DNA from: an uncultured Calditrichaceae bacterium
Lineage (GTDB): Bacteria > Calditrichota > Calditrichia > RBG-13-44-9
Length of the DNA stretch: 64,000 nucleotides
Assembly (NCBI GenBank): GCA_964452045.1
Contig: CAYVKM010000004.1
Location: forward strand, 2,659 to 66,658
Direction of reading: 5' to 3'
The notes under the pieces are model-generated. The model saw only the letters and a program-made list of their open reading frames with translations, searched no databases and was not told the origin of the DNA. Made by a program: the position numbers and the translations under genes. Shown piece by piece: positions 2,045-25,621 of the stretch (its first letter is position 1; every line of letters begins with the position of its first letter).

Positions 2045-3019
2045 ATGCAGGATTTTCAGATTATCGTTCCGGGTGGTTTAAATACTGATATAGTTGGGTT
2101 AGGGGTGGAGAGAATTCTGGGACCGGGGGAGTTGACCCTGGGTGGAGAATTAAAAATTGGACCTGGAGGTAAGGCACGGAATATGGCCCAGATGGCTGCC
2201 ACTTACTTGGGAAAAGGTCAAGTGGCGATGATTGGACGGAGCAGCCGCGATCCCTTCGGACTTTGGGAAGTGCCAATTGCCTCCCTTAAAAATGTTGGTG
2301 TTGATATCAGTTTTGTCAAAGTAACCGAATTTAGTGAAAATGGAAATATTTTTCCGGGGATTGCCCTGATTCCAGTGGCCAAAAGCGGGCGAAATCAAAT
2401 TTATGTTTTACCGGGGGTAAACCTGGATTTCAGCCCGGAGGATATTGAGAACGCTTCAATATTATTTCGAAATCCAAGCCGGAAAAAGGTGATGATCCTG
2501 GCCTTGGAAATCCCGCTAGCGACGGCCAAGTCTGCCATCAGGAAAGCTCATGAAAACCATATCCGGATTATCCTGGATCCTGGTGGTATTGAAAAGCCAA
2601 TCGATGATTTGCTGAATGAGAATATCTTTTTAATTAAACCTAATGAGTATGAGGCGGAAATTATTACCGGTATCCGGATCAAGGATTTTGAATCTGCCCG
2701 GCGGTCGGCTCAAAAAATACTCTCCAAAGGTGTACAAAATGTTTTTATCACCCATGGAGATAAAGGCGGATATCTTTTTAATAATCATATTAACCTGATG
2801 ATTCAGATTCCCCAGATTGCAAAAAGCAGAATTCATGATGAGACCGGGTGTGGCGACCAAGTGACCGCTATTTTGGCAGCCTGTCTATCCGAAGACCGAA
2901 GCCTGACTGAATCTGCTGAGATTTCTATTGTAGCCGGTACCCTGCAATTTTACCGGGCCGGGATACAACCGGTAACCCGAACGGACCTAAATAAGTATAT
3001 CGAGACCTCCCAAACATAG
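2045..3019 (+). CDS. PfkB/ribokinase-family carbohydrate kinase
   Basis: 324 aa. N-terminal GGLNTD...GGKARNMA motif and C-terminal DETGCGDQ anion-hole motif typical of the ribokinase/PfkB family. Confidence 0.75.
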   Translation: MQDFQIIVPGGLNTDIVGLGVERILGPGELTLGGELKIGPGGKARNMAQMAATYLGKGQVAMIGRSSRDPFGLWEVPIASLKNVGVDISFVKVTEFSENGNIFPGIALIPVAKSGRNQIYVLPGVNLDFSPEDIENASILFRNPSRKKVMILALEIPLATAKSAIRKAHENHIRIILDPGGIEKPIDDLLNENIFLIKPNEYEAEIITGIRIKDFESARRSAQKILSKGVQNVFITHGDKGGYLFNNHINLMIQIPQIAKSRIHDETGCGDQVTAILAACLSEDRSLTESAEISIVAGTLQFYRAGIQPVTRTDLNKYIETSQT

Positions 3020-3108: not shown

Positions 3109-4656
3109 ATGGAAAATCTCTTTCTGGGCATCGATTCTTCCACCCAAAGTTGTAAAATTATTTGTATCGATTCCGATGAGGGAACGATTGTCTTTCAGGA
3201 TTCGGTAAACTACGACCGGGATTTGCCAGAGTTTGGTACGAAGGACGGCGCTATTCCTTCCCGGGAGCCCGGTGTGTCTGAGGCCGATCCCCGAATGTGG
3301 ATCCGGGCACTGGAATTACTATTTGACCGATTAATAAATATTAAATTTCCGCTGAATTTAATCAAAGCAATTTCTGTCTCCGGGCAGCAGCACGGTCTGG
3401 TTTGTATGGACTCGCAGGGTAATCTTACCCGCAAGACCAGCAAATTATGGAATGATGTTTCCACCAAAGAGGAATGTGAGATTCTGACTGAAGCCGTTGG
3501 TGGCAAACAAGCGATGATCAAGAAAATTGCTAACAGTCAACGACCGGGATATACCGCCAGTAAAATACTAAATTTTTATCACCATGAACCGGAGGCAGCG
3601 GCAAAGACTAAAATATTTTTCCTGGTCCATAACTACCTGAACTGGTTCCTTACCGGCGGGATTGCCCGCATGGAACCGGGGGATGTGTCCGGAATGGCCC
3701 TTTCCTTTCCCGGATCCCACCAGTGGTCGGAAAAAGTCTGCTCGGCCATAGCCCCGGATTTTACCACAAAACTGCCACCAGTACGAAAATCTGATCTGAG
3801 TATCGGTCCAATTTCCGGAAATCTGGTCCAACGATATGGTTTTTCATCCACCTGTCGAATCGATGCAGGTAGTGGTGATAATATGTACGGGGCCATCGGG
3901 ACCGGTAATGTTCGTCCGGGAATTGTTACAATTAGTCTGGGAACCAGCGGTACCGCTTATATCATTCTGGATGAACCCTATGTAGATCCCTTGGGAGAAA
4001 TCGCCCTGTTTTGTGATAGTACCGGTAAATTCATGCCACTGCTTTGTGTCTCAAATATGGCCAATGGTTATAACGATTTATTGCGAATCCATAAATTGGA
4101 TCATGATAAATTTGATCAGTTGCTCAAAAAGACCTCGCCGGGGAACGACGGTAAATTCATCTTCCCCTGGTTTGTCGGGGAACGAACACCGGACCTGCCG
4201 AAAGCCAAACCAATTTTCTGGGGATTTGGTCTGGAGGATTTTCAACTTCAGACCATGTGCCGGGCAGTTCTGGAAGGTCACATTCTGAATTTATTTGATG
4301 GTTATCGGCGCCTGCCGGTGAATTCACGTGAGATCAGATTGACCGGTGGGTTGAGTAATTCTGACAGCTGGTGTCAAACGATTGCCGATATTTTTGATTG
4401 CGAAACTGTACCGGTTAAAGGCGAAGGAGCAGCTCTGGGAGCCGCCTTACACGCAGCCTGGGTTTACTTTAAGGAAAACAACAATCAGGACAGACTAGAT
4501 GAGCTGGTTGACGGATTTGTCATTCTGGATAAAGGTCGCCGAAAAAAACCAGTAAATGCAGGAGCTTATCAGAATTTAAAAAAAGTCTATAGCGAAGCAA
4601 GCCGCCGACTCCGGCAGGGTAGTGGGGATATTGATCCATTCTTACAAGTCTTATAA
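3109..4656 (+). CDS. FGGY-family carbohydrate kinase, xylulokinase-like
   Basis: 515 aa. N-terminal LGIDSSTQSCK phosphate-1 motif and GTSGT motif in the second FGGY domain. Substrate not assignable from sequence. Confidence 0.7.
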   Translation: MENLFLGIDSSTQSCKIICIDSDEGTIVFQDSVNYDRDLPEFGTKDGAIPSREPGVSEADPRMWIRALELLFDRLINIKFPLNLIKAISVSGQQHGLVCMDSQGNLTRKTSKLWNDVSTKEECEILTEAVGGKQAMIKKIANSQRPGYTASKILNFYHHEPEAAAKTKIFFLVHNYLNWFLTGGIARMEPGDVSGMALSFPGSHQWSEKVCSAIAPDFTTKLPPVRKSDLSIGPISGNLVQRYGFSSTCRIDAGSGDNMYGAIGTGNVRPGIVTISLGTSGTAYIILDEPYVDPLGEIALFCDSTGKFMPLLCVSNMANGYNDLLRIHKLDHDKFDQLLKKTSPGNDGKFIFPWFVGERTPDLPKAKPIFWGFGLEDFQLQTMCRAVLEGHILNLFDGYRRLPVNSREIRLTGGLSNSDSWCQTIADIFDCETVPVKGEGAALGAALHAAWVYFKENNNQDRLDELVDGFVILDKGRRKKPVNAGAYQNLKKVYSEASRRLRQGSGDIDPFLQVL

Positions 4657-4679
4657 AGATAAAATAAAGGGAGATATTA

Positions 4680-5222
4680 GTGAAATTATCAGAGGCGAAG
4701 GAATTAAGGGAAAAAACATATCAGATGCTCCGGGAAGCGAATATCGTAATCTCTCCCGAAGAAAGGGCAAATATCGAGATCGCTGATTTTGGACTGGACG
4801 ACATAAACAATATGGGCTTACAGCTGGTGGTGTATGAAAATAATGACCGTTATTGCGCCAAGGAACTAGTACTGTTTCCCCGGCAAACCTGTCCGGAACA
4901 CCGGCATCCGCCATTAAGTCATCAGAACATCGGAAAACAGGAAACCTTTCGGTGTCGTTGGGGTGAGGTATACCTCTATCTGGATGGCGAGCCAACCAAA
5001 GATCCAAAAGCGGTAATTCCTAGGAAATATAAAGATTATTTCCAGGTTTGGAAGGAAATCATTCTAAAACCGGGTGATCAGTTTACTTTGCCTCCCAACA
5101 CCAAGCACTGGTTCCAAGCCGGGGATAATGGGGCGATTGTCTCGGAATTTTCTTCTACCAGCAGCGATGAGATGGACATTTTTACCGATCCGAATATAAA
5201 CCGACTTCCGGTTTACGAATAA
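4680..5222 (+). CDS. D-lyxose/D-mannose ketol-isomerase (cupin, YdaE-like)
   Basis: 180 aa, GTG start preceded by an AGGGAG ribosome-binding site. Aligns with B. subtilis YdaE along almost its full length (RYCAKELVLFPxQTCPEHRHPP...GKQETFRCRxGxVYLY...PPNTKHWFQAG...STSxDxxDIFTDP). Confidence 0.85.
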   Translation: MKLSEAKELREKTYQMLREANIVISPEERANIEIADFGLDDINNMGLQLVVYENNDRYCAKELVLFPRQTCPEHRHPPLSHQNIGKQETFRCRWGEVYLYLDGEPTKDPKAVIPRKYKDYFQVWKEIILKPGDQFTLPPNTKHWFQAGDNGAIVSEFSSTSSDEMDIFTDPNINRLPVYE

Positions 5223-5245: not shown

Positions 5246-6415
5246 ATGGAAGAAGAGTGGACAGCAAAAAAAAGGTTTATCGCCGCTTTGGAAAGGCGAA
5301 AGGCGGACCGATTACCCGCAACAACCCACCATGTGATGCCTTATTTTCTGGAAAAATACATGGATGGGATCCCATACCAAAAATTCTTCGATCACTTTGG
5401 ATTGGATCCTATCAATTGGGTGGTTGCCCAGCGACCCAACCAGGAGAATAGCGAATATTATGATCCTACCCAGAAAGAATTTGGTTTTCTGGAACCTCAA
5501 CGTATCTGTTCCGATAATTGGCGAATTAGACCGGAAATTGTCTCCGATCCCGATTATAAGACCATCCTGTACAATATCGAAACACCTCAAAAAACCCTTT
5601 CCATGATCCTGCAAAGTAATAATTACACAACCTGGGTTTCTAAACGTTTGATTGAACAGAAAGGTGACATAGACATCCTGGCCAAGTACGGAACCATGCC
5701 GTTGTGTGATGTGGAAAAGGTTAATACTGAGGCGGTTAAATTTGGTGAGCGTGGATTGATCCGTGGATTTATCCCTGGTTTTGATATTTATGGTCAGTCC
5801 GGTTGCTGGCAGGATGCAGCTGTCCTTTATGGAGTGGAACAGCTCATTATGGAAACTTTCTACGATCCGCAATGGGTGCATGCTTTCATGAAAATTTTGC
5901 AGGAGCGAAAAAGGACTTATTTGGTCTCCATAAAAGGTGCCCGGTTTGATGTGATTGAGCATGGAGGTGGTGACGCCTCTTCTACTGTAATTTCTCCGGA
6001 AATTCTGGAAACCTTTGTCCTGCCATATGATGCAGAACTAACCGACCTGGCGCACCGGATGGGTCAGCGGGTGGTATACCATACCTGTGGTGGCATGATG
6101 CCCTTCCTGGAAATGATTGCGGCCACTAAACCGGATGCGATGGAAACGTTTACGCCATCTTCCATGGGTGGAGATACCGTTCTGAAAGAAGCAAAGCGGA
6201 GAATTGGAAACCGGGTCTGTATGATCGGCGGTTTTGACCAATTTCATTATTTCCAGGATTGCTCTCCGGATGAAACCAGAAAGGCAGTCCGACAATGTTT
6301 TGAGGATGCCGGGGAAGGGGGTGGATTTATTCTAGCTCCCTCGGACCACTTTTTTGATGCTGATACCCAGCTCATCGCAGCCTTTGCTGATGAAGCAAAG
6401 AAATGCCGTTATTGA
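5246..6415 (+). CDS. Uroporphyrinogen-decarboxylase (URO-D)/MtaA-family protein, paralog 1
   Basis: 389 aa. URO-D-like N-terminus (KKRFIAALERRKADRLP). C-terminal HTCGG...GNRVCMIGGFDQ...GGGFILAPS pattern as in MtaA/URO-D TIM barrels. Confidence 0.6.
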   Translation: MEEEWTAKKRFIAALERRKADRLPATTHHVMPYFLEKYMDGIPYQKFFDHFGLDPINWVVAQRPNQENSEYYDPTQKEFGFLEPQRICSDNWRIRPEIVSDPDYKTILYNIETPQKTLSMILQSNNYTTWVSKRLIEQKGDIDILAKYGTMPLCDVEKVNTEAVKFGERGLIRGFIPGFDIYGQSGCWQDAAVLYGVEQLIMETFYDPQWVHAFMKILQERKRTYLVSIKGARFDVIEHGGGDASSTVISPEILETFVLPYDAELTDLAHRMGQRVVYHTCGGMMPFLEMIAATKPDAMETFTPSSMGGDTVLKEAKRRIGNRVCMIGGFDQFHYFQDCSPDETRKAVRQCFEDAGEGGGFILAPSDHFFDADTQLIAAFADEAKKCRY

Positions 6416-6475
6416 AAAATTTTTGATGAGGGTGAACTCTTCCTCCAAAACATACCCTAGTGTTAGTAAACTAGT

Positions 6476-7651
6476 TTGATTCAAAATAATATTACCATGA
6501 AAAAAATTATTGAGATTGCCGTACCTATTGAAGAAATTGAGAAACGCAAGGAAAGAGTCACCCGGGCAAAGAACTTTCAAACACCGGACCGGGTACCGGT
6601 TATTCCGGCGATTGCCCATCGTTTTCTGGTGCCGCAGGTTGGTGTAAAATTTCGGGATTATTATGACGATCCGGAAACCATGCTGCGTACCCAGATTTTG
6701 GCGCAAAAATGGCTCCTGGAAAATATCAGGACCGATGCCTATAGCATTACTGGTGCCTGGGTAGGTGCCTGGACAGATTTTCAAAATTCTTTTGAGGCGG
6801 GAAGCCTTGGATGTGAGGTGGTTTTTCCGGAGAATGATATTCCCTGGGTCGGAGAAAGTTGGGTTAAAGAGGATCGGGATCTGAAAAAACTGGAAGCATT
6901 CGATTTCGTCCATACCGGTTTGAATGCCCGCCAGATTAACTACCGGAATCAAATGATTGAAGTTGCTGAGAAATATCCGGTTCGGTTCCAGGGAGGCGAA
7001 GTGTTTTATCCCGGAGAAACTCCCAACCTTACCCATACCTCGGACGGACCTTTTGGCGTGGCTGGAGATGTGATGGGAATAACTGAAATTTTTACTGCAG
7101 TATCCGAACGACCTGATTTTGTAAGGGAAGTTATGCGAATCGTGACGGATAAATTGATTGAATATCTGGATTTCTGCTGGGAGGAAGAAGGTTTGTCGGT
7201 GCCAAAGGATTTTGCCTGGACTGATGATCTGGCAGTTTCGCTTTCCGAGGAGATGTACCGGGATCTGGTTCTACCATTTGAAAAAAAATTGCGTTTCAAT
7301 TTTGATGGTTACTTAAGCTTGCATATGTGCGGTAAGTCAGATCACTTGTTAAAAACATTCCGCGACGAACTGCAGATTCATGAGCTTCAGGGATTCGGTT
7401 ACCAGGTGGATCTGGATTATATTGCCTCAGTGATGGGTGGAAAGGTAGTTCTTATCGGTAATGTCGATCCAATGTTGATTCATTCCGGAACCCCGGATGA
7501 AGTGATGGAAGCCTCCCGGAAAGTGATCGAGAAACTGTCACCTTTCAAGGGATTTATCCTGCAGGATGGGAATAACATTCCGCCCGGCACACCCATCGAT
7601 AATATAAACGCCATGATGGAGGCAGCAGAAAAATATGGCGTTTTTGAATAA
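6476..7651 (+). CDS. URO-D/MtaA-family protein, paralog 2
   Basis: 391 aa. TPDRVPVIPA N-terminal motif, LHMCGKSDHLL motif, C-terminal GNVDP...ILQDGNNIPPGTP. Confidence 0.6.
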   Translation: MIQNNITMKKIIEIAVPIEEIEKRKERVTRAKNFQTPDRVPVIPAIAHRFLVPQVGVKFRDYYDDPETMLRTQILAQKWLLENIRTDAYSITGAWVGAWTDFQNSFEAGSLGCEVVFPENDIPWVGESWVKEDRDLKKLEAFDFVHTGLNARQINYRNQMIEVAEKYPVRFQGGEVFYPGETPNLTHTSDGPFGVAGDVMGITEIFTAVSERPDFVREVMRIVTDKLIEYLDFCWEEEGLSVPKDFAWTDDLAVSLSEEMYRDLVLPFEKKLRFNFDGYLSLHMCGKSDHLLKTFRDELQIHELQGFGYQVDLDYIASVMGGKVVLIGNVDPMLIHSGTPDEVMEASRKVIEKLSPFKGFILQDGNNIPPGTPIDNINAMMEAAEKYGVFE

Positions 7652-7690
7652 AAGCAGTTTTAAGGCAAACATCAGGATTTTCTTCCAAGA

Positions 7691-8815
7691 ATGATAAATA
7701 CTATTCAACAAACAAAAGACTTTTTAACACGGCTCTGGCGAATGGAAAACGAGGAGCGTCCGGGATATGTGTTGAGTTATCTCGGTCCGGAGGTCGGGGG
7801 AGGCCCGGTAGTAAGAAGTGCCCTTTTTTCGACCGAGGGTAAAGATACGGTGCGGGACAGGCTGCTTAATCCCGGTAAATATTTGCAGGCCCAACTGGAC
7901 GAAATAGAAGATCAGTTAAAACTCCGGGGAGATTTTATACCCAGCCTTTGCCCGTCACTCGGTGTTATTGCGATTGCTTCTGCCTTTGGTTGTGAGGTGG
8001 TCTGGTGGGAAAAGGATTTTCCCGCGGTAAAACCCATTATGGAAGGGGAATTGGAGGAAGTACAAGATTTGTCCAAACCGGATCTCACTGCCGGTGAACT
8101 TGGCAGAATTCTGGATTACACCCATTTTTTTATTGAGGAAACCAGCAGCGAATATCCGATCCGGCTTACGGATATCCAGGGACCTTTGGATAATGCCGGA
8201 CTTATTATGGGGCATAACAATCTTCTGACTGCCATGCTGTCCCATCCGTCAGCAGTCCATCATCTGATGGATCTGGTAACCGATCTCATGATTGATTTTA
8301 TTAAGGCCCAGCGGGAAATTGTATACAAAGCAGGGATTGATTTCGTTCCGGCCATGTTTCTGCCCTGGATGCCGGATGGACTGGGAGTTGCAATTTCCAA
8401 TGACGACTGGGTAATGATTTCTCCTGAGATGCACAATGAATTTCATCTCCCTTACCTGAACCGGCTCTCGGAAGAGTTTGGTGGGATTTACCTCCATTCC
8501 TGCGGAAACTGGCAGCATCAGATTTCCAGCATAAAGAAGATATATCAACTTCGTGGACTGGAATTTGGGGCAAGCGAGACCCCGCCTGAAGCTGTTTTTG
8601 GCGCGTTCAATGGGAAAATCGTCTTAGCCTGCCGGGTGGGATTTAACCGGGATTATCCTTTCGCCGGGATGGCGGATTTTGTTCGGCGCATTCTGAAAAC
8701 CCGGAAAACCAATCGCGGTCTATTTATCAATATTGATGTGACAAATGGGCTTACCGACCATAATTGGCCGGAAACTGATATCGGCGAAATCTACCAATTA
8801 CTGGGAGTGGAATAG
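7691..8815 (+). CDS. URO-D/MtaA-family protein, paralog 3
   Basis: 374 aa. LHSCGNWQH motif and overall length and pattern shared with the neighbouring paralogs. Confidence 0.55.
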   Translation: MINTIQQTKDFLTRLWRMENEERPGYVLSYLGPEVGGGPVVRSALFSTEGKDTVRDRLLNPGKYLQAQLDEIEDQLKLRGDFIPSLCPSLGVIAIASAFGCEVVWWEKDFPAVKPIMEGELEEVQDLSKPDLTAGELGRILDYTHFFIEETSSEYPIRLTDIQGPLDNAGLIMGHNNLLTAMLSHPSAVHHLMDLVTDLMIDFIKAQREIVYKAGIDFVPAMFLPWMPDGLGVAISNDDWVMISPEMHNEFHLPYLNRLSEEFGGIYLHSCGNWQHQISSIKKIYQLRGLEFGASETPPEAVFGAFNGKIVLACRVGFNRDYPFAGMADFVRRILKTRKTNRGLFINIDVTNGLTDHNWPETDIGEIYQLLGVE

Positions 8816-8816
8816 A

Positions 8817-11216
8817 ATGATCTCTGCTCCACGAAATGCTCCGCCAGGTTTCGACTGGATCGTCCGGGTAAAAATCTGGGAAATGAAAGACAGTTCATTT
8901 ACGCTCCACGTACAAACCGCAAATGGCAAACAAGCCAGTGTTATCTTTCGAGTAATTACTCCCTGGATCTGGCACATCGTATTTTTACCTCCTGGTGTTA
9001 AATATATAGCAATGGATGAAGTTGTTAAGTTTGTAGTCCCCCAAAAGCTTAAACTAAACTTAACGGAGAGCGGTAGGTTTTTAAAGATCACGGGTTCCAA
9101 ATTGACACTGCTAATATCAAAGGATCTCTGGTCATTTTCTTTTCAGGACAAAAGTGGAAATCATCTGCTGCGGGAAAATCCGGGTGATATCGACGGACTG
9201 GGGCAGCCCTTTGTTCAGAATCTTGGCTATATCAAACAAGAAGGTCGGATAAACACGGTAACCGAGTCCTTTCATTTGAAACCGGATGAACATCTGTACG
9301 GACTGGGGGAAAAATTTACCCGACTTGATAAAGTGGGTCAGAAAATAGTTACCTGGACTGTGGATGCTCTGGGCTCTACCAGTGAACGTTCCCATAAAAA
9401 TGTCCCATTACTTATCAGCACATGTGGATATGGCTTGTTTCTAAATTCTTCAGCCCGGATAACCTGGGAGCTGGGAACCGAATCTACCCAGTCCTACTGC
9501 ATTTTTCAGGAATCTTCATTTATAGATGCCTATTTGATCTATGGACCAAAACCAGCAAATATCCTATCTCGTTATGCTGACCTGACCGGGCATGCCCCGG
9601 TTCCGCCCAAATGGAGTTTTGGACTATGGATTTCTACTGCCGGAACCTATAGGGATCAGAAGTCGGTGATGAAACTGTTAAGAGGAATTGAACAACATAG
9701 GATCCCTGCTAACGTTTTGCATATTGATACCTGGTGGATGCGGGAACGAAAATACTGCGATTTTATCTGGGATCGCCATGCTTTTCCTGAGGTAGAGAAG
9801 CTTATTCACAAAATTAAACAGAAAAAGCTCAAACTATCCCTTTGGATTCAACCCTATATCTCCACCGAAAGCGAACTTTTTGATATCGGTAAGCAAAAGG
9901 GATATTTCTTGAAACGTTTGAATGGCGAAGTCTATATTATAAACTATGGTCTCTCACTTGCGCCGGCACCTGATGGGGTTGTAAGACTAGCGGAAGAGAA
10001 ACAAGGGTGGAATGCACCGGTGGCGCTGGTGGATTTCACCAATCCGGAGGCATATCGGTGGTTCCAGGATCTGGCCAGGCCTGTTTTACAAATGGGTGCC
10101 GACATCTATAAAACTGATTTTGGTGAAGACGTCCCCAGGGATGCAGTATTTCATAATGGCCAGACCGGAGCACTCATGCACAATCTTTATCCTTTGCTCT
10201 ACAATAAAGCAATCTTTGAAGTTGTGAAACAGGAAAAAGATTATGGACTGGTCTGGGCTCGGTCGGGATTTGCCGGTAGCCAGAAATATCCGGTTTGCTG
10301 GTCCGGAGATCCGGCAGCGGATTGGGATAGTCTGGCGGTGACCATTCGCGGCGGACTCTCCCTGGGATTTTCCGGTATTCCCTTTTGGAGCAATGACATT
10401 GGCGGCTACCGGGGTATGCCGTCAGCAGAATTATATGTTCGTTGGGCGCAATTTGGGTTATTTTGCTCCCATAGCCGTATGCATGGAGATAGTCCCCGTG
10501 AACCCTGGTATTTTGGTGATACTGCACTGCGGATTGTCAGAAAATATATTCTTCTGCGTTACCGGTTATTTCCCTACATCTATTGTACAGCAATTGAATC
10601 ACACCGGACGGGGATGCCGGTCATTCGGCCCATGCCGCTGCTCTTCCCGGAGGATCCCAACTACCATAGCCTGGATCTGCAATATATGTTCGGACCCTGG
10701 CTGCTGGTAGCCCCCATGTATAATGATTCGGATTTCCGCTGGATTTATCTGCCGAAAGGCAAATGGATTGATTTCTTTAATGGTAAAATTTTTAAAGGTC
10801 CGGCCAATATCAGGTTCAAGGCGCCTCTGGACAAATTACCCTTGTTTGTTCGATCCGGTGCCATTCTGCCAATGATGCGGAAAAGTTTTCGAATTCCGGA
10901 GGGTTCGATAAATCCGTTAATTGTTGAAGTCTTCCCTGAGGATAATAGTCATTACACCTTGTTTGAGGACGAGGGGAAAACCGATTTTCAGTGTTCAAAA
11001 TCGGAAAAAGAGATCATTCTAAGGATCACCGGTAAATTCGTACGAAATTATATTCTGCATTTTAGAACCATCAAGAATATCAAAGAAGCGCGGATTGAAA
11101 CAGGAGGGAAATTGGAGTTGGTTGATAAATTAAAAATTAAAAATTTCAGGAATGGCATTGAACTCTCCATTAACAGGATAACAGAAGCGAAAATTATTTT
11201 TGACATAGGAGTCTGA
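8817..11216 (+). CDS. Glycoside hydrolase family 31 (alpha-glucosidase/alpha-xylosidase-like)
   Basis: GH31 nucleophile-region motif YKTDFGEDVP as in YicI, and HIDTWWM. The track ORF starts at 8745 but overlaps the upstream stop. An in-frame ATG at 8817 lies 1 nt after that stop and is the more likely start. Confidence 0.8.
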   Translation: MISAPRNAPPGFDWIVRVKIWEMKDSSFTLHVQTANGKQASVIFRVITPWIWHIVFLPPGVKYIAMDEVVKFVVPQKLKLNLTESGRFLKITGSKLTLLISKDLWSFSFQDKSGNHLLRENPGDIDGLGQPFVQNLGYIKQEGRINTVTESFHLKPDEHLYGLGEKFTRLDKVGQKIVTWTVDALGSTSERSHKNVPLLISTCGYGLFLNSSARITWELGTESTQSYCIFQESSFIDAYLIYGPKPANILSRYADLTGHAPVPPKWSFGLWISTAGTYRDQKSVMKLLRGIEQHRIPANVLHIDTWWMRERKYCDFIWDRHAFPEVEKLIHKIKQKKLKLSLWIQPYISTESELFDIGKQKGYFLKRLNGEVYIINYGLSLAPAPDGVVRLAEEKQGWNAPVALVDFTNPEAYRWFQDLARPVLQMGADIYKTDFGEDVPRDAVFHNGQTGALMHNLYPLLYNKAIFEVVKQEKDYGLVWARSGFAGSQKYPVCWSGDPAADWDSLAVTIRGGLSLGFSGIPFWSNDIGGYRGMPSAELYVRWAQFGLFCSHSRMHGDSPREPWYFGDTALRIVRKYILLRYRLFPYIYCTAIESHRTGMPVIRPMPLLFPEDPNYHSLDLQYMFGPWLLVAPMYNDSDFRWIYLPKGKWIDFFNGKIFKGPANIRFKAPLDKLPLFVRSGAILPMMRKSFRIPEGSINPLIVEVFPEDNSHYTLFEDEGKTDFQCSKSEKEIILRITGKFVRNYILHFRTIKNIKEARIETGGKLELVDKLKIKNFRNGIELSINRITEAKIIFDIGV

Positions 11217-11218
11217 TC

Positions 11219-12358
11219 ATGTCACCAAAAAAGTCTAACCATAGCCTTTGTCGATGGACCTTTAATGCCGGTAAGGGTGGATTTGTCCCGGCTGATATTC
11301 GTCCTGCCTGGGACGAAGCAAAACTGGACACCCCGGGCGTTATCCGGCTCATCAAAGAGAAAATTGTCCCCCGTGTGCCGGAGCATATCCTCCTGGGCTT
11401 TGAAATCCATTACGATAATGAAGTGAACGAACAGAACGCTGAAGCGGTGGCGGAAGCCTTACTTGATTGTGGAATGTACCTGGCAATGATTACTCCCGGT
11501 GCCCATATTCACTATGGTTATGGTGGGCCTGCCTCAATGGATATCGAAGAACGGAAATCGGCCAATTTTTTTGCCCGACGAACGGTTGATCTGGCTTACC
11601 AGGAACTGCGTAAAGCCTGGCATCCCCACAAATCACTTTTTCCCAGCCTGGTGATCTGGAACGGTTCCTTTGGATACGATCTGGCTACTACTGGTGTGCA
11701 GCAGATGTATCAGAATCTGAAGGACGGTATCGCCGGAGTATGTCAATATGAAGCCCAAAAGGGGGGTGATCTATATATTGGAATTGAGCCCAAGCCGAAT
11801 GAGGGGCATGCTGCAATGCTGTTGCCAACGGTGGCCAGTACCATAATTTTCTGGCATAAATTGGAGAAGGAGTATGGCATTTCCCTACGGAAGAAGGGGG
11901 TGAATAAAGAGTTTGGTCATTCCGAGATGATCGGGCTGGATCACGTCTATGATACGGTGGAGGAAATTGACAACGATATGCTGGTACATATGCATGTTAA
12001 TAGTCAGGGTTATAATGATGGAATCCTGTTAGGTGGGCCAGGAAAGTTTGATATTGATAATGGAGTTCGGATCAACGGGATGAATATTGCTGTGGCTGGT
12101 TTAATGCAAAAGGCTGGGTATAAGCGCTGGAAGGGACATGACATGCAGCCCCGGCCCCATGACAATGAAGAACAGGCTATTAACCGGGTGGTGCGCAGTA
12201 TTCTCAGTTGGGAAGCCTGCGAGAAGGCAGCTGCGGAACTGGATGAAAAGAAACTGTTTGAATTTTTATCCTCTCGCCAAACAGCAGCAGTTGAGGATCT
12301 GATCCGTGGAGCCATAAATGATGCTCAAAAATATTTTGATGAATTGTATGCATCCTGA
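11219..12358 (+). CDS. Xylose-isomerase-family TIM-barrel isomerase (class I XylA-like, divergent)
   Basis: 379 aa. Contains GIEPKPNEG (the XylA IEPKPNEP motif), EIHYDNEV (FHDDD region), FGHSEM (TGHEQM region) and VHMHVNSQ (FHIDLNGQ region). The WGGREG motif is replaced by WNGSFG. Confidence 0.7.
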   Translation: MSPKKSNHSLCRWTFNAGKGGFVPADIRPAWDEAKLDTPGVIRLIKEKIVPRVPEHILLGFEIHYDNEVNEQNAEAVAEALLDCGMYLAMITPGAHIHYGYGGPASMDIEERKSANFFARRTVDLAYQELRKAWHPHKSLFPSLVIWNGSFGYDLATTGVQQMYQNLKDGIAGVCQYEAQKGGDLYIGIEPKPNEGHAAMLLPTVASTIIFWHKLEKEYGISLRKKGVNKEFGHSEMIGLDHVYDTVEEIDNDMLVHMHVNSQGYNDGILLGGPGKFDIDNGVRINGMNIAVAGLMQKAGYKRWKGHDMQPRPHDNEEQAINRVVRSILSWEACEKAAAELDEKKLFEFLSSRQTAAVEDLIRGAINDAQKYFDELYAS

Positions 12359-12418
12359 ATGGTAATATAATCTCCAGTTTAAAAATTATAACCGATATCG
12401 AGTAAGAATTTCGGATGG

Positions 12419-13420
12419 TTAATTCGTTTGATAAACCTTCCACGCCTTAAAAAAGCTTTTTAAATTTTCTTTCGGAACACCCGGTGGAATATCACACCCA
12501 GTGGATAGAATATAGTTTTTGTATTTCCTGGTTTTATCCAGCAGATCGAGGGTTGTCTGGTAAACCTGGTCGGGTGTCGACTCCTTGAAGATCCCAACCG
12601 GATCTAGATTGCCCATCACCAGCAAGTCTTTATTGAGATAAGCCAGGGCTGAGAGAATGTCACACTGATTGCCCAGATGGAGGGCCGCTGCTTTGGTATT
12701 TTGCATGCTTTCCAGTAGGGGATTAGTATTCCCGCAGTTGTGCAGTACCAGGATAAAACTATCGTCCTGAACCGTCTCAACCACCTGCCGGATGTAAATT
12801 GAGGAAAATTCCTGGCATAGTTCCGGGGAAAGCATACCGGCCGCCGGTTCGGCCATGATAACCCCGCCGGTCCCGGCTGTTTTAAAAGCCTGGCAATATA
12901 TTGTCAGGAAGGCAGTACATTTCTCCAGTAATAGATGGATTGAAATCGGATCGATCAGCATTTCTATCATGATCTCGGTCATGCCATAAAGGCGCCCGGC
13001 CAGGCTGAACGGTCCGATGCAACCTGCTAATACTGGCCGATCGGTAATATGCATTGCCGCTAATTGGGCAGCTTTCAGATATTCGGGCAGTCTTTTCCGA
13101 TCAAGCTCGGGCACCTTTAATTTGTCTATACTTTCCTTATCGCTCAGCAGTCTTCCGCATACAGTCGGAACATCATTTTCGCTGAAATGAACTTCAGCCC
13201 CGAAAGCTTCGGCTTCTACCGAGAGATCCATCATCATTGTGACAGCCGCGGTGGGATAGGTTTCAGCAAGCGCCTGAACGATCTGATAATGAACTGTACC
13301 ATCACTTACTGCCTGAAGGATTGTAGTGCCGATCATTTCAATCCCCGGGTGGGTCATGATTGGTATGGTTACCCTCTGTTTTTGAGTGATGATTCTGTTT
13401 TTCCATTCCTTCATATTCAT
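12419..13420 (-). CDS. URO-D/MtaA-family protein, paralog 4
   Basis: 333 aa. LHNCGNTNPLL motif, GNLDP, and C-terminal STGCDIPPGVP. Convergent with the plus-strand unit. Confidence 0.6.
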   Translation of the reverse strand: MNMKEWKNRIITQKQRVTIPIMTHPGIEMIGTTILQAVSDGTVHYQIVQALAETYPTAAVTMMMDLSVEAEAFGAEVHFSENDVPTVCGRLLSDKESIDKLKVPELDRKRLPEYLKAAQLAAMHITDRPVLAGCIGPFSLAGRLYGMTEIMIEMLIDPISIHLLLEKCTAFLTIYCQAFKTAGTGGVIMAEPAAGMLSPELCQEFSSIYIRQVVETVQDDSFILVLHNCGNTNPLLESMQNTKAAALHLGNQCDILSALAYLNKDLLVMGNLDPVGIFKESTPDQVYQTTLDLLDKTRKYKNYILSTGCDIPPGVPKENLKSFFKAWKVYQTN

Positions 13421-13543: not shown

Positions 13544-16500
13544 TCAATCCATCAGAGACTTAATTGAATTCGCCAATAATCGTCTGAGCAGAACCGGCTG
13601 CATGCCCTTTCCCGGTTGTTGTAAACCAGTAACCATTCCGGGCAGACTATGCCAGAGAATTTTCCCCTTTCCCAGCTTGGTAGTAAAACTGGCAGCGCCG
13701 ATATTTCGATCATGATCCCTGCCATAACCAACGAAAACATCCACATTTTGGCCCTCAAGCAGCAAGCCATCTGATCCGCTCACCGGTACCTGGTAATAGC
13801 TTTTCATGGCCTGATTAACCGGCATTCCATCAAAGACCGGGTGCTCCCGAACAAAAAACCAGGCGCCCATCCATGAGGCACGCACATTACCCACATGTCC
13901 CAGATAGTTGAAAGCGCCAGCTTCACCTAGCTTCTTGCCATAGGCATCGGCTGCCTCATGCCCGTCCGGAAGTACAAGCAGAGGTAATCCCGATTTTACC
14001 CGGGAGAGAACCTCATCGTCCAGGTTGAGTTTCTGACCATAAACTCCCCACACCAATCCGTTTTTGTCGGTGTAAGACTCTCCACCACAATTAATGGCGA
14101 TGACGGAATCTCCGGCCTCCACTTTTATGGCACTGAATTTGGCGTAATTGACCGTCAATTTGGGAACGGTGATCTTTACCACCCCATCCGGATCATTTAC
14201 CACAAAGGAGGTATCCAAGGCGATATTTGGCCCACCCACGGTTTTGACAATATCGAAATCTTTCAGAACGGTATCGCCATTTATGGCCATGTTCATTACC
14301 CGGTCACCGGGATTTTTCAGGGTAACTTCAGCCAGGCGTAGAGTCACCTTGGCAGTCCCTCTGGGAAGATCGGTGAAGACATATTCCAGATTTCGCCAGT
14401 ATCCCCAGCTCTCGGTATGGAAAAGCCGATCATCATCGGTATTGGCAATTTCCCGGGTCGAATCGACCACCGATCGCCAGCCATACAACAAGCGGGTTGA
14501 GGCAATAAGTAAATCATAAATCCCACTTTTTTGATAAGCTTCCGCCTTTACCCCGGGAAAGTTGTTAAGCTCATTTATAAATTCTGGTTCATGGGTCAGC
14601 ACACCAATCGAAACATTTCCCGCCAGATCAGGAAACTGGTCCACCACCAGAATTTTTTCTTCACCGAAAACAGTTTGGTTATCTATAGCGCTTAACTTAA
14701 GATCATAGAATCCTTCTTTGGTCAATTCCGGGGTAATTACTGAAATTTCTATGGGATAAACGAAACGGTCCTTTTGCCAATCTGATAACGCAAATTGATT
14801 TGATTTTATTTCAGTACCATCAGGATCGGTAATGGTCAAACGAAAACCTTTCGGATGTGGTTTTCCGGTTTCATTTAACAGATAAAGATCCAGTGTATCC
14901 GGTTGTCCCAGCGAAACGACCAATGATCTTGGTTTTATGAACGGGTGCAGGAGTTCCAGCCGTTTTTTAAGCAGTTCGGGATTGCCCTTAAAATTGCGCA
15001 GGTTGTCTACAAGTCCCGAGTGATTTTCGATGGCGGTCGATTCCCATCCACTGATGACCAGAAAATCGTTTGATTCGGATAATCGGGCGGTTTCAATAAC
15101 CCTTCCCCAGAAATCGTAACATTTATCACCAATATTCAGAAACAGTTTCTCGGTGGTGGGAAAAGCCGTGCGGAATTTCCATTTATCCAGAAAGGAATTG
15201 TAAGCCTGCAGGATCTCCTGGTGATCCTGCAGATCGTAACTCTGATTGCCATTATCTTTAATTTGCTGAATCATTGCCGGATGGTTATCGGGAACCGCCG
15301 CACCCAGCATTTCCCCCCAGACCACAATTTCTGAATCATTCTCCGAGTGATGAGTAAAATCTTTCATATCCTTGTACATGGGATCCTGCCAGACGCCCGG
15401 TCCTCCCACCGTGTGTTGATCCCACCAGCCGGAATAGCCATCACCCCGGTCGAGATAAATCGTGTCATCATAAGGCTGCATCCAGGCTTGATTGCGAGGT
15501 GGAATACCGGACTTCAATACAATAATCCGGCTGGGATCCTCAGCATGCACGCGTTTCAGCAAATGAAATATGCGTGGATTATGTAAATCCGGATTGATCT
15601 CATTTTGGATGGTATACATTATAAGAGAGGGGTGGCCGCGATGATCCCGGATCATCCGGATAATTTTTTCCTCCATATATTTTTCAGCAAACGTTCCTGG
15701 TTCGCCGTCTTTTCCGGAAATATCAATATTATCTTCGGGGGAATTTGCGTATAAAGAAAATTCTTCACCGAATGCAGTTTGTCCGCCACCCGGTTCCATA
15801 TACCGGAGTAAGCCCAGGCGATCCTGGGCATTTAAAACCTCGGCTTTGCCAATGTTCCGGTGAAATTGGATACAGTTCATCCCAAAAGCCTTTGCTGCCA
15901 GTACTTCTTTCTCGGCCAATTCTGGTGTTGGCCACAATCCGTTAAATCCCCAGAATCCCCAGGAAATGGCGGAGACTAGTCGTATTCGATTGCCATTTAA
16001 ACGCAGCACCGCGTTTTTTCCTATTCCACCAGCCTCAAACCAGCGGAAGCCAAAAGTCTGGTGATAGGTATCCGTAAATTTCTTCTTATTTTTCCTAGAA
16101 TTGCCGGTAAAACTGACCCGAACTTCATAAAGTTTGGGATTATCCAGAGACCAGATTTCTGCCCCTGGGCAAATAATTGATGATTCGAATTCAAGATTTT
16201 TCCCAGCAGCAATTTCCACTTTTTCTTTTCGCGAAGTTAATTTCTCCCCGTTCTGTGGATCAGTTACTTCAAAGTGCAACTCTCCATTAAATGCATCGGA
16301 AACCTCATTTTGAATCATTCCACGCACCCGGATAGTTTTAATATCAGGTGTATTGAGAACCGCCACATTTTCCAGATAAACAGGATCATGTGCAGTGATG
16401 AATATTCCCCGGTCCAATCCCCCAAAACCATGACCCATGTGGAACTGGTATTTTCCCCATTTGTGCATGCGGGTGTCTACCCAATCCATTTCCCCACCAG

Positions 16501-17071
16501 GATTGGTAATCCGGATTGCCAGCAGATTAGCTGCCCCCGGCAATACTACTTTGCTGATATCGCAGCTAAATGAAGTCTCAGTAATAATGTGATAACCCAC
16601 TAATTTCTGATTAAGGTATACCTCGGCCCGTAATCGGGCGTCCCGGATGTGTAAAATTATTTTTTTATTGGCATACTCATTTGGTATCTGCATTTTCTGC
16701 CACCACCAGGAAACTCCCTTGTAATATCCATTTTTAACCTGAGGATCTTCCTGTTCGAAATAGTATTCGTTATCATAAGGCTGAAAACCGAACTTTCCCC
16801 AATAATATTGTTCAACAGTGGCTGGCAGGGTCACTGGTATACCGATCTTTTCATTGAGAACTTCCCACCCACCGGTTGGCATGTTTACCGGTAGCTGGTC
16901 AAGCTCAAATTCACCGGGAAGGAAAATGTCATCATTTTGCCAGATGGCTGCAGTGTCCGGCCATAATCGCCAGTTGTTATCAGGAATATCGAGCCGATCC
17001 CCTGCGCGGCTGAAAGTTGGGTTCATCATTATAAGACAGAAAAAAAGTAATAAGTTGATATAGAATTTCAT
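13544..17071 (-). CDS. Secreted multidomain glycoside hydrolase (GH2-like, clan GH-A) with malectin-like carbohydrate-binding module(s)
   Basis: 1175 aa. Signal peptide MKFYINLLLFFCLIMMNPTFSRA. GH2-type N-terminal sugar-binding region. TIM barrel with an ...YTIQNEINPD acid/base-like motif. INCGGESYTDKNGLVWG matches the malectin signature. Confidence 0.6.
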   Translation of the reverse strand: MKFYINLLLFFCLIMMNPTFSRAGDRLDIPDNNWRLWPDTAAIWQNDDIFLPGEFELDQLPVNMPTGGWEVLNEKIGIPVTLPATVEQYYWGKFGFQPYDNEYYFEQEDPQVKNGYYKGVSWWWQKMQIPNEYANKKIILHIRDARLRAEVYLNQKLVGYHIITETSFSCDISKVVLPGAANLLAIRITNPGGEMDWVDTRMHKWGKYQFHMGHGFGGLDRGIFITAHDPVYLENVAVLNTPDIKTIRVRGMIQNEVSDAFNGELHFEVTDPQNGEKLTSRKEKVEIAAGKNLEFESSIICPGAEIWSLDNPKLYEVRVSFTGNSRKNKKKFTDTYHQTFGFRWFEAGGIGKNAVLRLNGNRIRLVSAISWGFWGFNGLWPTPELAEKEVLAAKAFGMNCIQFHRNIGKAEVLNAQDRLGLLRYMEPGGGQTAFGEEFSLYANSPEDNIDISGKDGEPGTFAEKYMEEKIIRMIRDHRGHPSLIMYTIQNEINPDLHNPRIFHLLKRVHAEDPSRIIVLKSGIPPRNQAWMQPYDDTIYLDRGDGYSGWWDQHTVGGPGVWQDPMYKDMKDFTHHSENDSEIVVWGEMLGAAVPDNHPAMIQQIKDNGNQSYDLQDHQEILQAYNSFLDKWKFRTAFPTTEKLFLNIGDKCYDFWGRVIETARLSESNDFLVISGWESTAIENHSGLVDNLRNFKGNPELLKKRLELLHPFIKPRSLVVSLGQPDTLDLYLLNETGKPHPKGFRLTITDPDGTEIKSNQFALSDWQKDRFVYPIEISVITPELTKEGFYDLKLSAIDNQTVFGEEKILVVDQFPDLAGNVSIGVLTHEPEFINELNNFPGVKAEAYQKSGIYDLLIASTRLLYGWRSVVDSTREIANTDDDRLFHTESWGYWRNLEYVFTDLPRGTAKVTLRLAEVTLKNPGDRVMNMAINGDTVLKDFDIVKTVGGPNIALDTSFVVNDPDGVVKITVPKLTVNYAKFSAIKVEAGDSVIAINCGGESYTDKNGLVWGVYGQKLNLDDEVLSRVKSGLPLLVLPDGHEAADAYGKKLGEAGAFNYLGHVGNVRASWMGAWFFVREHPVFDGMPVNQAMKSYYQVPVSGSDGLLLEGQNVDVFVGYGRDHDRNIGAASFTTKLGKGKILWHSLPGMVTGLQQPGKGMQPVLLRRLLANSIKSLMD

Positions 17072-17211: not shown

Positions 17212-17625
17212 TTAAAAAATTACACCGGCAACCAATATTAAATTAGCGAATGGGGTGGCTTCTCCGGTACGAACAAAGGCAATATTATGGGTCTCCCGGG
17301 TAATTTGCTTAATTTGTTCGTGACTGATTTTTTGGATCGGCACATCAGGTACAGTTTTCTGAAGTAAATCTTCTAGTGCTTTGTAATAATGAGGTGAGCG
17401 CTTTTCCATTTCAACGGTGATGATAATTTTTTCAACCTGGAGCTCCTGAAGAATTACCTGAAGCACATCCAGAAAACGAGGCAAATTGGGTGTAACAGCC
17501 AGGTCAACTAGTTCTTTTCCATAAGGAATAGGCAGTCCGCTATCCGCAATCACCAGAAAATCCCCGTGACCCATTCGGGCAATTACCTTGGATAACGGAG
17601 CATTTAACAATGCTGTTTTTTTCAT
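17212..17625 (-). CDS. rbsD: RbsD/FucU-family sugar mutarotase/pyranase
   Basis: 137 aa. MKKTALLNAPLSKVIARMGHGDFLVIADSGLPIP closely matches the RbsD N-terminus. Confidence 0.8.
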   Translation of the reverse strand: MKKTALLNAPLSKVIARMGHGDFLVIADSGLPIPYGKELVDLAVTPNLPRFLDVLQVILQELQVEKIIITVEMEKRSPHYYKALEDLLQKTVPDVPIQKISHEQIKQITRETHNIAFVRTGEATPFANLILVAGVIF

Positions 17626-25036: not shown

Positions 25037-25054
25037 TTCTTATCCTCGAAAATT

Positions 25055-25618: not shown

Positions 25619-25621
25619 AGA

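Follow-up and report, generated by a model that had tools for sequence, protein, structure and literature searches.

A glycan-utilization locus of an uncultured Calditrichaceae bacterium with four URO-D-fold paralogs, candidate parts of a cobamide-dependent methyl-transfer system for O-methylated sugars

The four paralogs and described corrinoid methyltransferases

The closest described counterparts of the genes studied here are the aryl-methyl-ether O-demethylases (MtvABC of Moorella, Odm and Vdm of Acetobacterium dehalogenans, and archaeal MtoABCD) and the CdmBCA system. These systems consist of a first methyltransferase (MT-I) of the URO-D superfamily, a corrinoid protein with a DxHxxG motif, a second methyltransferase (MT-II), and a reactivating protein, and some of the MT-I enzymes contain zinc (PMC13222342). 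We analysed a 64,000-nucleotide stretch of DNA from an uncultured Calditrichaceae bacterium (contig CAYVKM010000004.1 of assembly GCA_964452045.1; the whole stretch is called the window below), in which four genes of the same superfamily, U1 to U4, lie among genes for glycoside hydrolases (GHs) and sugar catabolism. An original prediction made from this DNA had named the four genes and their neighbours, and both were recovered in scans with PF01208 and other Pfam and NCBIfam models (Table 1). The reading that fits the evidence best, to which we assign a probability of roughly 60%, is that U1–U4 belong to a system, built into a glycan-utilization locus, that handles O-methylated sugars by cobamide (B12)-dependent methyl transfer; O-demethylation of methylated sugars was one of the activities that the prediction had put forward.

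All four proteins exceeded the PF01208 gathering score of 23.9 bits, and all four open reading frames (ORFs) are intact. A motif pattern had been proposed to be common to the set. Its H-x-C-G element is indeed invariant in U1–U4, while only U1 and U2 have the N-terminal DR.P motif (U3 has EERP, and the shorter U4 lacks the motif), and the C-terminal G.FIL motif is likewise confined to U1 and U2. The other paralogs are 15–23% identical to U1, which makes them ancient rather than recent duplicates; as each also forms a family of its own that is kept across phyla, recent tandem duplication was rejected as their origin. The U1–U3 genes are under purifying selection, with dN/dS values of 0.05–0.12 relative to the closest relative.

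HemE shares the TIM-barrel fold and the Pfam family with U1–U4, but the likeness does not extend to score, haem context, or the H-x-C metal motif, and an ordinary HemE assignment was rejected. With the TIGR01464 model (cut-off 303 bits), U2 scored 37 bits and U4 78 bits, and no match was obtained for U1 and U3; no MRQAGR-type arginine motif was visible in the paralog sequences; and the neighbouring genes code for glycosidases, sugar isomerases, kinases, and transporters, not for haem or other tetrapyrrole biosynthesis. The earlier view that these proteins are not uroporphyrinogen decarboxylases is in agreement with this result. The paralogs also fell below every curated cut-off for MtaA, MtbA, and CmuA. 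Among MtaA/MtbA models (PRK06252, TIGR01463, MtaA_Meth, and MtbA), U4 came closest, at 145.7 bits against a cut-off of 244 for PRK06252, and U1–U3 scored 59–92 bits.

The folds of U2 and U3 were studied using AlphaFold2 models, that of U1 by hhalign against the U4 family, and that of U4 through its sequence match in the PDB. The best PDB match of U4 was the M. mazei methylcobalamin:coenzyme M methyltransferase 4ay7, with the H-x-C and GC zinc motifs aligned. The models of U3 (pLDDT 92.4, pTM 0.93) and U2 (pLDDT 76.8) both matched M. mazei MtaA (4ay8/4ay7) first and UroD structures next, with E-values from 1e-13 to 1e-9 (1e-13 for the top matches of U3) and TM scores of 0.6–0.7; MT-I-like and MT-II-like proteins were thus not separable by fold searches. 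Profile alignment with hhalign related U3 to U2 with 98.3% probability over 331 columns, and U1 to the U4 family with 96.4% probability over 214 columns.

The paralogs divide at the putative metal site, and a check on MtaA zinc ligands that had been suggested with the prediction gave a split answer. U4 keeps the canonical MtaA-type His-x-Cys...Cys set as a putative zinc site (His227-Cys229-Cys309, aligned to the 4ay7 ligands), whereas U1, U2, and U3 have aspartate in the third position of their putative sites (His279-Cys281-Asp367, His283-Cys285-Asp364, and His269-Cys271-Asp349, respectively). All these residues are invariant within their families, as is H368 of U1. In the URO-D/MtaA superfamily, S-methyltransferases have His-Cys-Cys sites, while O-methyltransferases swap Cys for carboxylates (PMC10418091, a preprint). 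By this rule, the sequences of U1, U2, and U3 fit an MT-I site. The prediction had allowed only for uroporphyrinogen decarboxylases and MT-II enzymes among characterised members of the superfamily. That division was too narrow, since the superfamily also includes MT-I O-demethylases, besides methyltransferases that act on halomethanes and clades whose substrate is not known (PMC13222342, 2026), and the paralogs themselves can therefore be the MT-I that had seemed to be missing.

The sharing of one carrier by several paralogous MT-I proteins is a feature of the O-demethylase systems that the U1–U4 system would have in common with them, and the C-terminus of U2 matched the MT-I protein CdmB (9rui, E 8e-8). 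The differences are several. Substrates of the described systems are methoxylated aromatics and halomethanes, whereas U1–U4 are found in the context of glycoside hydrolases and sugar catabolism. In those systems, the MT-II hands the methyl group to tetrahydrofolate (CdmA has been modelled with a folate site and is related to MtqA; PMC13222342), whereas neither the window nor the annotated parts of related loci showed a folate-binding methyltransferase. The known activator is the ATP-dependent RACE, whereas relatives of the window locus, with the exception of L001, which has RACo domains, encode a Met_synt_B12-like protein with four cysteines. Finally, the described hosts are acetogens and methanogens, whereas loci of the U1–U4 type occur in fermenters or heterotrophs of the Calditrichia, Ignavibacteria, Anaerolineae, and Bacteroidales. 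Because its context, inferred substrate class, and activator type are all unusual, the U1–U4 system does not appear to be an ordinary described methyltransferase system.

MtaA, MtbA, and MtsA (4ay7/4ay8) provide the best sequence or structure match for U4, U2, and U3, and their His-Cys-Cys ligands are kept in U4. Unlike these enzymes, U1–U3 have the second Cys replaced by Asp, the scores of the paralogs lie far under the curated cut-offs, and there is no sign of methanogenesis in the loci. The hosts of U1–U4-type loci are not known to synthesise coenzyme M.

Type 1 mlp clusters, described by Kountz and Balskus, combine several MtaA-like paralogs of distinct ancient lineages with a corrinoid protein and an activator, and contain no folate methyltransferase; they have spread horizontally among anaerobes, mostly Firmicutes, have almost exclusively His-Cys-Cys paralogs, and are accompanied by sulfur or selenium genes and RACE (PMC10418091). 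The U1–U4 system has the same general composition but is set apart, by the published description, by the His-Cys-Asp sites of three of the four paralogs, by its glycosidase partners, and by the Met_synt_B12-like activator. The type 1 combination of Mlp2 and Mlp3, a corrinoid protein, RACE, and a sulfur or selenium context was not found, with U4 as the only His-Cys-Cys paralog and no RACE. A sulfur or selenium methyl transfer of the mlp kind, with a methyl-thio or methyl-seleno donor or acceptor (for example, methylthio-pentoses, methanethiol, or dimethyl selenide), would agree with the shared composition, with the U4 site, which is of the type ascribed to S- and Se-methyltransferases, with the ribose-type genes of the locus (RbsD, ribokinase-like, and RbsB-like), and with the occurrence of SelA and SelB in the window. 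However, SelA and SelB (32002–35405, plus strand) are ~10 kb away, with unrelated genes in between, and we take their proximity to be coincidental. Together with the Asp substitution in U1–U3, the activator type, and the conserved partners, which are GH31, GH38, GH2, GH141, and sugar isomerases and kinases rather than sulfur or selenium genes, this makes a sulfur or selenium function very unlikely.

Corrinoid proteins in related loci

The original prediction stated that no corrinoid protein is encoded in the window, and this proved correct for the whole 64 kb in tblastn searches, six-frame hidden Markov model (HMM) searches, and Pfam scans that covered almost all remaining large ORFs. The same scans revealed no RACE and no pterin-binding methyltransferase domain of the PF00809 type in the window, and no PF00809-type protein was present in the Pfam-annotated parts of related loci. 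An Rfam scan of the window showed neither a cobalamin riboswitch nor any other family.

Related loci, searched by six-frame HMM and tblastn, presented a different picture. Five of them have the gene order of the window (L007, L009, L010, and L019 from Calditrichia, and L172), and in all five a corrinoid protein gene and a PF02965 Met_synt_B12-like gene are located directly upstream of the isomerase gene. In the four Calditrichia loci, the order is PfkB (not visible in L019), FGGY, corrinoid protein, Met_synt_B12, cupin, U1, and U2, with U3 and GH31 following U2 wherever the contig extends that far. L172 contains the whole window locus, with the sodium:solute symporter (SSF), GH38, RbsD, GH2-malectin, and U4 on one strand, and XylA-like, GH31, U3, U2, U1, and cupin on the other, where Met_synt_B12 and the corrinoid protein gene again directly precede the cupin gene. 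In Ignavibacteria (L002, L039, L052, and L076), the pair lies a few genes (0.1–2.3 kb) upstream of U1-U2-U3-GH31, and in Anaerolineae L001 and L017 a corrinoid protein is encoded ~9–10 kb away, with RACo domains in L001 only. The corrinoid proteins of the L007-type loci carry GDLHDIGK, SALLTTT, and GGAP motifs and resemble methyltransferase-cognate corrinoid proteins. In the window, the corresponding FGGY-isomerase junction is only 23 nt long and has a normal ribosome-binding site and spacing; the carrier and reactivator genes are therefore cleanly absent from it.

From the lack of a corrinoid partner, the prediction had gone on to suggest a cofactor-independent activity, in which U1–U3 or all four paralogs would be decarboxylases, isomerases, or epimerases acting on sugars with a URO-D barrel and no corrinoid carrier. 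UroD itself is cofactor-free, no corrinoid protein was found within 10 kb in 70 of the 81 non-redundant U2 loci, and minimal Anaerolineae loci consist of U2, GH38, and an ABC transporter only. Consistent co-occurrence with a B12-binding corrinoid protein and an activator had been named in advance as an outcome that would count against the prediction, and the two do co-occur with these genes. All loci that share the window's gene order, and those of Ignavibacteria, include a corrinoid protein and a reactivator in the operon, the H-x-C and Asp residues of the methyltransferase branch are invariant, and the HemE scores and arginine motif search described above give no support to UroD-like chemistry. 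The cassettes of U4 relatives in Bacteroidales and environmental loci, and a fusion of a U3-like domain to a corrinoid domain (both described below), point in the same direction, and we regard cofactor-independent chemistry as improbable.

The same clean absence could mean that the system is a disabled remnant in the source genome, in which loss of the carrier and reactivator, present in the slot in five of five syntenic relatives and missing from the window, left four orphan, nonfunctional methyltransferase genes. This, too, is unlikely given that the four ORFs are intact, the dN/dS values of U1–U3 are low, the junction keeps a normal ribosome-binding site and spacing, and other lineages (L001 and L017) encode the corrinoid protein apart from the methyltransferases. 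For the cobamide-dependent system favoured here to turn over, the carrier and reactivator would have to be encoded elsewhere in the source genome and supplied in trans, and the locus would offer a natural experiment on such supply.

A QueG-like epoxyqueuosine reductase gene (Fer4_16 and QueG_DUF1730 domains) is present in the window at 35431–36375 on the minus strand, and QueA is at 43409–44512 on the plus strand. QueG is a cobalamin enzyme, and the organism therefore probably uses cobamides, either taken up or made.

Further carrier genes were found using a metagenome search with an alignment of the corrinoid proteins and a protein database search with U4. A recurring cassette of a corrinoid protein, a U4-like protein (52–57% identity), and Met_synt_B12 was present in six loci (L098, L113, L167, L169, L170, and L171). 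The three genes are contiguous in L098, L113, L169, and L170, and in all six loci but L170 the U4-like gene touches or overlaps that of Met_synt_B12. Relatives of U4 with 52–58% identity in general lie beside a corrinoid protein gene or a few genes from it, and beside Met_synt_B12, which many of them overlap. The cassette occurs in Phocaeicola (L167; a protein cluster of 2885 sequences), Alistipes, Paludibacter, and a contig from JGI. GH31 and SSF adjoin it in five of the six loci, the exception being L098, a Bacteroidota polysaccharide-utilization locus with SusC/SusD, GH109, RhaT as the transporter, a second URO-D gene, and a weak GH31-like match. In L113, the cassette is surrounded by rhaM, GH31, SSF, GH2-malectin, and a LacZ-type GH2. 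GH141 is present in four of the six loci (Phocaeicola, Alistipes, Paludibacter, and L171). L170 and L171 also contain GH78 and rhaM, with GH127 in L170 and a GDSL/pectinesterase gene in L171. An SSF gene is part of the module with the corrinoid protein, U4-like protein, and GH31 in L113, L167, L169, L170, and L171, and it stands beside GH38 in L172.

The pectinesterase gene of L171 lies between the corrinoid protein and U4-like genes, and hydrolases of the pectin or rhamnogalacturonan II type surround the cassette in both L170 and L171. These observations could indicate that the methyl groups come from esters of the pectin type, or from the methanol that such esters release, and that the system salvages one-carbon units during pectin breakdown; on chemical grounds, a carboxylate is also a better leaving group than an alkoxide. 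Against this stand the absence of pectinesterase and uronate genes from the window locus and most U2 loci, and the identity of the tightest partners, which are the GH31 alpha-xylosidase and isomerases and kinases of neutral sugars. Moreover, methanol:corrinoid methyltransferases (MtaB) do not belong to the URO-D family. An ester or methanol source is, in our judgement, quite remote as an explanation.

Between GH31 and SSF, the loci L113, L169, L170, and L171 encode a protein of ~340 amino acids (aa) with no Pfam match. In Phocaeicola (L167:13588-15390, minus strand), a domain of this type is fused to a C-terminal corrinoid-binding domain in a 600-aa protein, which is highly abundant in gut metagenomes (its clusters have 3545 and 1170 members) and in which only the B12-binding domains are recognised in the precomputed Pfam annotation. 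Over its full length, the N-terminal domain is distantly homologous to U3 (hhalign probability 92.8%, E 3.9e-7, 320 columns), with His-x-Asp in place of the His-x-Cys of U3. The fusion provides direct Rosetta-stone evidence that U3-type proteins act on a corrinoid carrier, and the presence of the fusion and a U4-like protein in one locus gives two distinct URO-D-fold methyltransferases per carrier, which is the classical MT-I/MT-II layout. The order of methyltransferase and corrinoid domains is shared with CmuA, the chloromethane MT-I of methylotrophs. Unlike CmuA, the Phocaeicola domain is a distant relative of U3 with a His-x-Asp motif and is encoded in a polysaccharide-utilization locus with GH31 and GH141; no fusion is present in the window.

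The Met_synt_B12-like proteins encoded beside the corrinoid proteins (Table 1) are short, 228–250 aa, and contain four invariant cysteines (SPGYCGW ... YxCxxCxxxxC), which suggests an Fe-S or zinc site. No NCBIfam model matched the two that were scanned. As judged from these sequences, the protein may be an undescribed type of corrinoid reactivator; neither the window, which has no ATP-dependent RACE/RamA-type activase, nor its relatives with the PF02965 protein follow the known arrangement. A partial parallel is provided by MetH: the corrinoid protein resembles its cap and cobalamin module (partial TIGR02082 match, 143 bits), the reactivator matches its activation domain (PF02965), and U4 would act as the zinc thiol-methylating module, with homocysteine as the acceptor being only a guess. 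Unlike in MetH, the proteins are separate, the methyl-donor module has a URO-D fold and is not pterin-binding, and the activation homologue is short and has a four-Cys motif that is not part of the description of MetH.

Glycosidase partners and proposed role in sugar demethylation

Homologues of U2 are widespread. The best database matches included proteins 73–95% identical to U2 of the window, and a GTDB scan revealed homologues with 68–84% identity in metagenome-assembled genomes labelled as seven phyla (Calditrichia, Chloroflexota, Ignavibacteria/Bacteroidota, Aminicenantes/Acidobacteriota, Planctomycetota, Verrucomicrobia, and Eubacteriales, with Chloroflexi and Chloroflexota counted once), plus one cyanobacterial label. 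An exact-sequence look-up with U4 of the window gave no match. At 68–84%, U2 is far more conserved than its co-transferred neighbours U1 (57–70%), U3 (56–68%), and GH31 (50–59%), and it might be a shared component that contacts the carrier.

The tie to glycoside hydrolases, noticed first in the window, holds across many phyla. U3 is present in 41 of the 81 non-redundant U2 loci and adjoins U2 in every one of the 41, and among the 29 loci with both U3 and GH31, the GH31 gene comes immediately after U3 in 22. U1 is found in 36 of the 81 loci, with the cupin gene directly upstream in seven of the seven loci containing both genes; in Anaerolineae loci, U1 adjoins GH38, and GH38 stands beside U1 or U2 in many of them. 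GH2-malectin adjoins U4 or a further paralog, U5, and the U4 pairing recurs in L002, L006, L019, L076, and L172. The adjacency patterns indicate that each methyltransferase lineage is associated with a glycosidase or sugar enzyme of its own. The window locus has the co-localised glycoside hydrolases, transporters, and sugar catabolic enzymes of a glycan utilization locus, with the order kept in L010, L019, L076, and L172; L098, L167, and L169 are versions with SusC/SusD.

The accessory gene set of Chloroflexota loci (for example, L018, L022, L011, and L037) is unlike that of Calditrichia: U1 and U2 are accompanied by DUF455 (ferritin-like), a GFO/IDH/MocA oxidoreductase, a NosD/beta-helix protein, a DUF6259/GH-like protein, ABC sugar transporters, and a long GH38. 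The accessory families of Anaerolineae and Aminicenantes loci (beta-helix/NosD, DUF6259-like, FG-GAP, and sulfatase-TPR) gave no hint of the glycan in Pfam.

Sugars carrying O-methyl groups are widespread. They include 2-O-methyl-xylose and 2-O-methyl-fucose of rhamnogalacturonan II, methyl-mannose and methyl-galactose of algal, fungal, and invertebrate glycans, methyl-rhamnose of bacterial polymers, and the methyl sugars found in organic matter, both dissolved and in sediments. Neither glycosidases nor central metabolism can proceed past the methyl group. Marine degraders of porphyran reportedly use a cytochrome P450, encoded together with glycoside hydrolases, to oxidatively demethylate 6-O-methyl-D-galactose with release of formaldehyde, and to our knowledge such O2-dependent P450 enzymes are the only dedicated sugar demethylases. 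In contrast, the system proposed here would be O2-independent and would rely on nucleophilic methyl transfer to Co(I).

In the proposed scheme, glycosidases and the SSF or ABC importers would bring O-methylated sugars or small methylated glycosides into the cytoplasm, where the His-Cys-Asp sites of U1, U2, and U3, acting as Lewis acids, would activate the sugar methyl ether and pass the methyl group to Co(I) of the small corrinoid protein (the MT-I half-reaction). The His-Cys-Cys zinc site of U4 would then unload methyl-Co(III) onto an acceptor, probably a thiol (the MT-II half-reaction), and the MetH-activation-domain-like protein with its four invariant cysteines would repair oxidised Co(II). 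The GH31 alpha-xylosidase would feed the xylose-isomerase-like enzyme and the XylB-like kinase, and GH38 would feed the lyxose/mannose isomerase and the PfkB kinase. We infer the substrate class, the direction of transfer, the division of MT-I and MT-II roles, and the acceptor from gene context and metal-site residues.

The sharpest prediction of the scheme is that 2-O-methyl-alpha-D-xylosides would be the substrates of U3 and GH31, one example being the rhamnogalacturonan II fragment 2-O-Me-Xyl-alpha1,3-Fuc. The original study of rhamnogalacturonan II reportedly found this linkage to be the only one that Bacteroides thetaiotaomicron could not cleave. The founder of GH141, BT1002, releases 2-O-methyl-D-xylose-alpha1,3-L-fucose from rhamnogalacturonan II (PMC10154630), and a GH31 alpha-xylosidase together with a methyltransferase is what consumption of this product would need.

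Several points weigh against the sugar-demethylation system as we propose it. The candidate roles of U1–U4 and the methylated-sugar substrate are predicted from sequence and context, and the MT-I/MT-II assignment follows a ligand rule taken from a preprint. Known O-demethylases act on aryl ethers, and the leaving group of an alkyl methyl ether is more difficult to displace, an alkoxide being a poor one. The extreme conservation of U2 could instead mark it as a shared MT-II, and the recurrent pairing of U4 with GH2-malectin could mean that U4 is substrate-specific as well. The 64-kb window contains no corrinoid protein, reactivator, or RACE; a corrinoid protein was detected within 10 kb in only 11 of the 81 non-redundant U2 loci, with none in view in most Anaerolineae, Aminicenantes, and Planctomycetota loci, so it is only through a shared operon in certain lineages that U1 and U2 are linked to a corrinoid. 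In addition, though this is not decisive for how specific the carrier is to U1–U3, the best 80 metagenomic relatives of the corrinoid protein are mostly found in unrelated contexts and not beside U1–U3. Finally, the window locus has no GH141, and its GH38 and mannose/lyxose isomerase genes, present along with ribose-type genes, do not fit rhamnogalacturonan II; the locus must therefore target more than this glycan, and further methylated glycans that contain pentose or mannose are probably among its substrates.

Taken together, the loci may represent a widespread, undescribed route of anaerobic sugar methyl-ether removal by cobamide-dependent URO-D-fold methyltransferases in glycan loci, with hosts ranging from abundant Bacteroidales of the human gut (Phocaeicola and Alistipes) to Calditrichia, Ignavibacteria, Anaerolineae, and Aminicenantes of sediments and digesters. 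This combined proposal, which we hold tentatively and at somewhat less than even odds, includes a new MetH-activation-like reactivator with four cysteines, and a module in which U3 or its fused relative acts with GH31 (and with GH141 in Bacteroidales) to demethylate and cleave 2-O-methyl-xylose-alpha1,3-fucose, through which B12 would gain a new role in the digestion of fibre by gut Bacteroidales. A full-text literature search returned no description of corrinoid or URO-D genes in glycan loci, though papers outside the searched literature may exist.

The system, if real, would be the anaerobic answer to the problem of methylated sugars. Corrinoid methyltransferase chemistry would then be extended from aryl ethers, amines, thiols, and halomethanes to the alkyl ethers of carbohydrates, possibly with a new class of corrinoid reactivator, and gut Bacteroidales would have a new reason to compete for vitamin B12. 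The possible consumption of the last refractory piece of rhamnogalacturonan II would also be explained. As each paralog is paired with a specific glycosidase, many enzyme-substrate pairs would become testable.

Gene layout and other features of the window

The genes of the plus-strand unit, from PfkB to the XylA-like gene, are separated by gaps of 2–89 nt, which is consistent with one transcription unit. The minus-strand unit is convergent with it and comprises PhyH, SSF, GH38, RbsD, GH2-malectin, and U4. Promoter and terminator scans of the window performed at chance level and carry no evidential value.

Table 1. Coordinates of locus features in the window and of Met_synt_B12-like proteins in related loci
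Feature	Coordinates	Strand	Remarks
Sugar-binding protein, periplasmic, RbsB/YtfQ-like	809..1756	-	Divergent from main operon; Pfam Peripla_BP_4 174.5 bits
PfkB-family sugar kinase, ribokinase-like	2045..3019	+	Pfam PfkB; opens plus-strand unit
FGGY kinase, xylulokinase-like	3109..4656	+	Pfam FGGY_N and FGGY_C; TIGR01312 XylB 354.8 bits, cut-off 380
FGGY-isomerase junction, 23 nt	4657..4679	+	Slot of ~1.5 kb corrinoid protein and Met_synt_B12-like genes in relatives
D-lyxose/D-mannose isomerase (cupin)	4680..5222	+	PDB 7nzo E 2.5e-77; 2y0o E 5.6e-64; Pfam Lyx_isomer
U1, URO-D-fold paralog, candidate O-demethylase (MT-I type)	5246..6415	+	389 aa; PF01208 71.8 bits
U2, URO-D-fold paralog	6476..7651	+	391 aa; PF01208 125.2 bits
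U3, URO-D-fold paralog, candidate methyl-xyloside O-demethylase	7691..8815	+	374 aa; PF01208 67.9 bits
GH31 alpha-xylosidase-like hydrolase	8745..11216	+	Pfam GH31 domains; NF007940 (YicI alpha-xylosidase) 604.4 bits, cut-off 606
Distant xylose-isomerase homologue	11219..12358	+	PDB xylose isomerases E ~6e-13; TIGR02631 69.6 bits, far under cut-off; no Pfam match
U4, MtaA-like methyltransferase, candidate methyl-corrinoid:thiol methyltransferase (MT-II type)	12419..13420	-	333 aa; PF01208 186.9 bits
GH2 and malectin-domain glycosidase, upstream of U4	13544..17071	-	Pfam Malectin and GH2 domains
RbsD-type pyranase/mutarotase	17212..17625	-	NF008761 D-ribose pyranase 159 bits, cut-off 93; Pfam RbsD_FucU
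GH38 alpha-mannosidase-family hydrolase	17651..20098	-	Pfam GH38 N, middle, and C domains
Sodium:solute symporter (SSF), likely sugar/oligosaccharide importer	20116..21876	-	Pfam SSF
PhyH-family Fe(II)/2-oxoglutarate dioxygenase, system membership uncertain	21973..22776	-	Pfam PhyH 115 bits
Met_synt_B12-like proteins	L010:7449-8195, L009:4517-5269, L076:5844-6575, L002:7571-8266		
Met_synt_B12-like proteins	L167:11004-11690, L169:10968-11714, L113:11008-11709, L098:11665-12366		

As listed, the GH31 ORF overlaps the end of U3 by 71 nt (8745–8815). GH31 proteins of relatives are 788–807 aa long, compared to 823 aa in the window, and the true start is therefore probably a downstream ATG. The PfkB kinase scored 162 bits with TIGR02152 (cut-off 300) and has the same position in L007, L009, and L010. 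In these three loci, the periplasmic sugar-binding protein, which was below the cut-off of the NCBIfam YtfQ/RbsB-like model, also has a syntenic counterpart, with 74–79% identity. A second FGGY-family kinase (3–800, minus strand) is cut by the left edge of the window; L007 and L010 have a counterpart of 557 aa that adjoins the sugar-binding protein.

The PhyH dioxygenase recurs in L004 (15002–15814, by Pfam) and in L053 and L059 (by tblastn). It is pure speculation that it offers facultative organisms an O2-dependent alternative for modifying or demethylating the same sugars.

Housekeeping genes make up the rest of the window, among them those for SelA/SelB, QueG, QueA, and Ruv proteins, and the dcw cell-division cluster. 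Next to the sugar locus is an ORF of 343 aa (22973–24004, minus strand) with no Pfam or NCBIfam match, followed on the same strand by a small cluster (24023–27442) coding for an AIR-synthase-related protein, DUF4416, and an AMP-binding enzyme. The segment 38001–40000 has a G+C content of 0.31, compared to ~0.43 elsewhere in the window, and contains few long ORFs.

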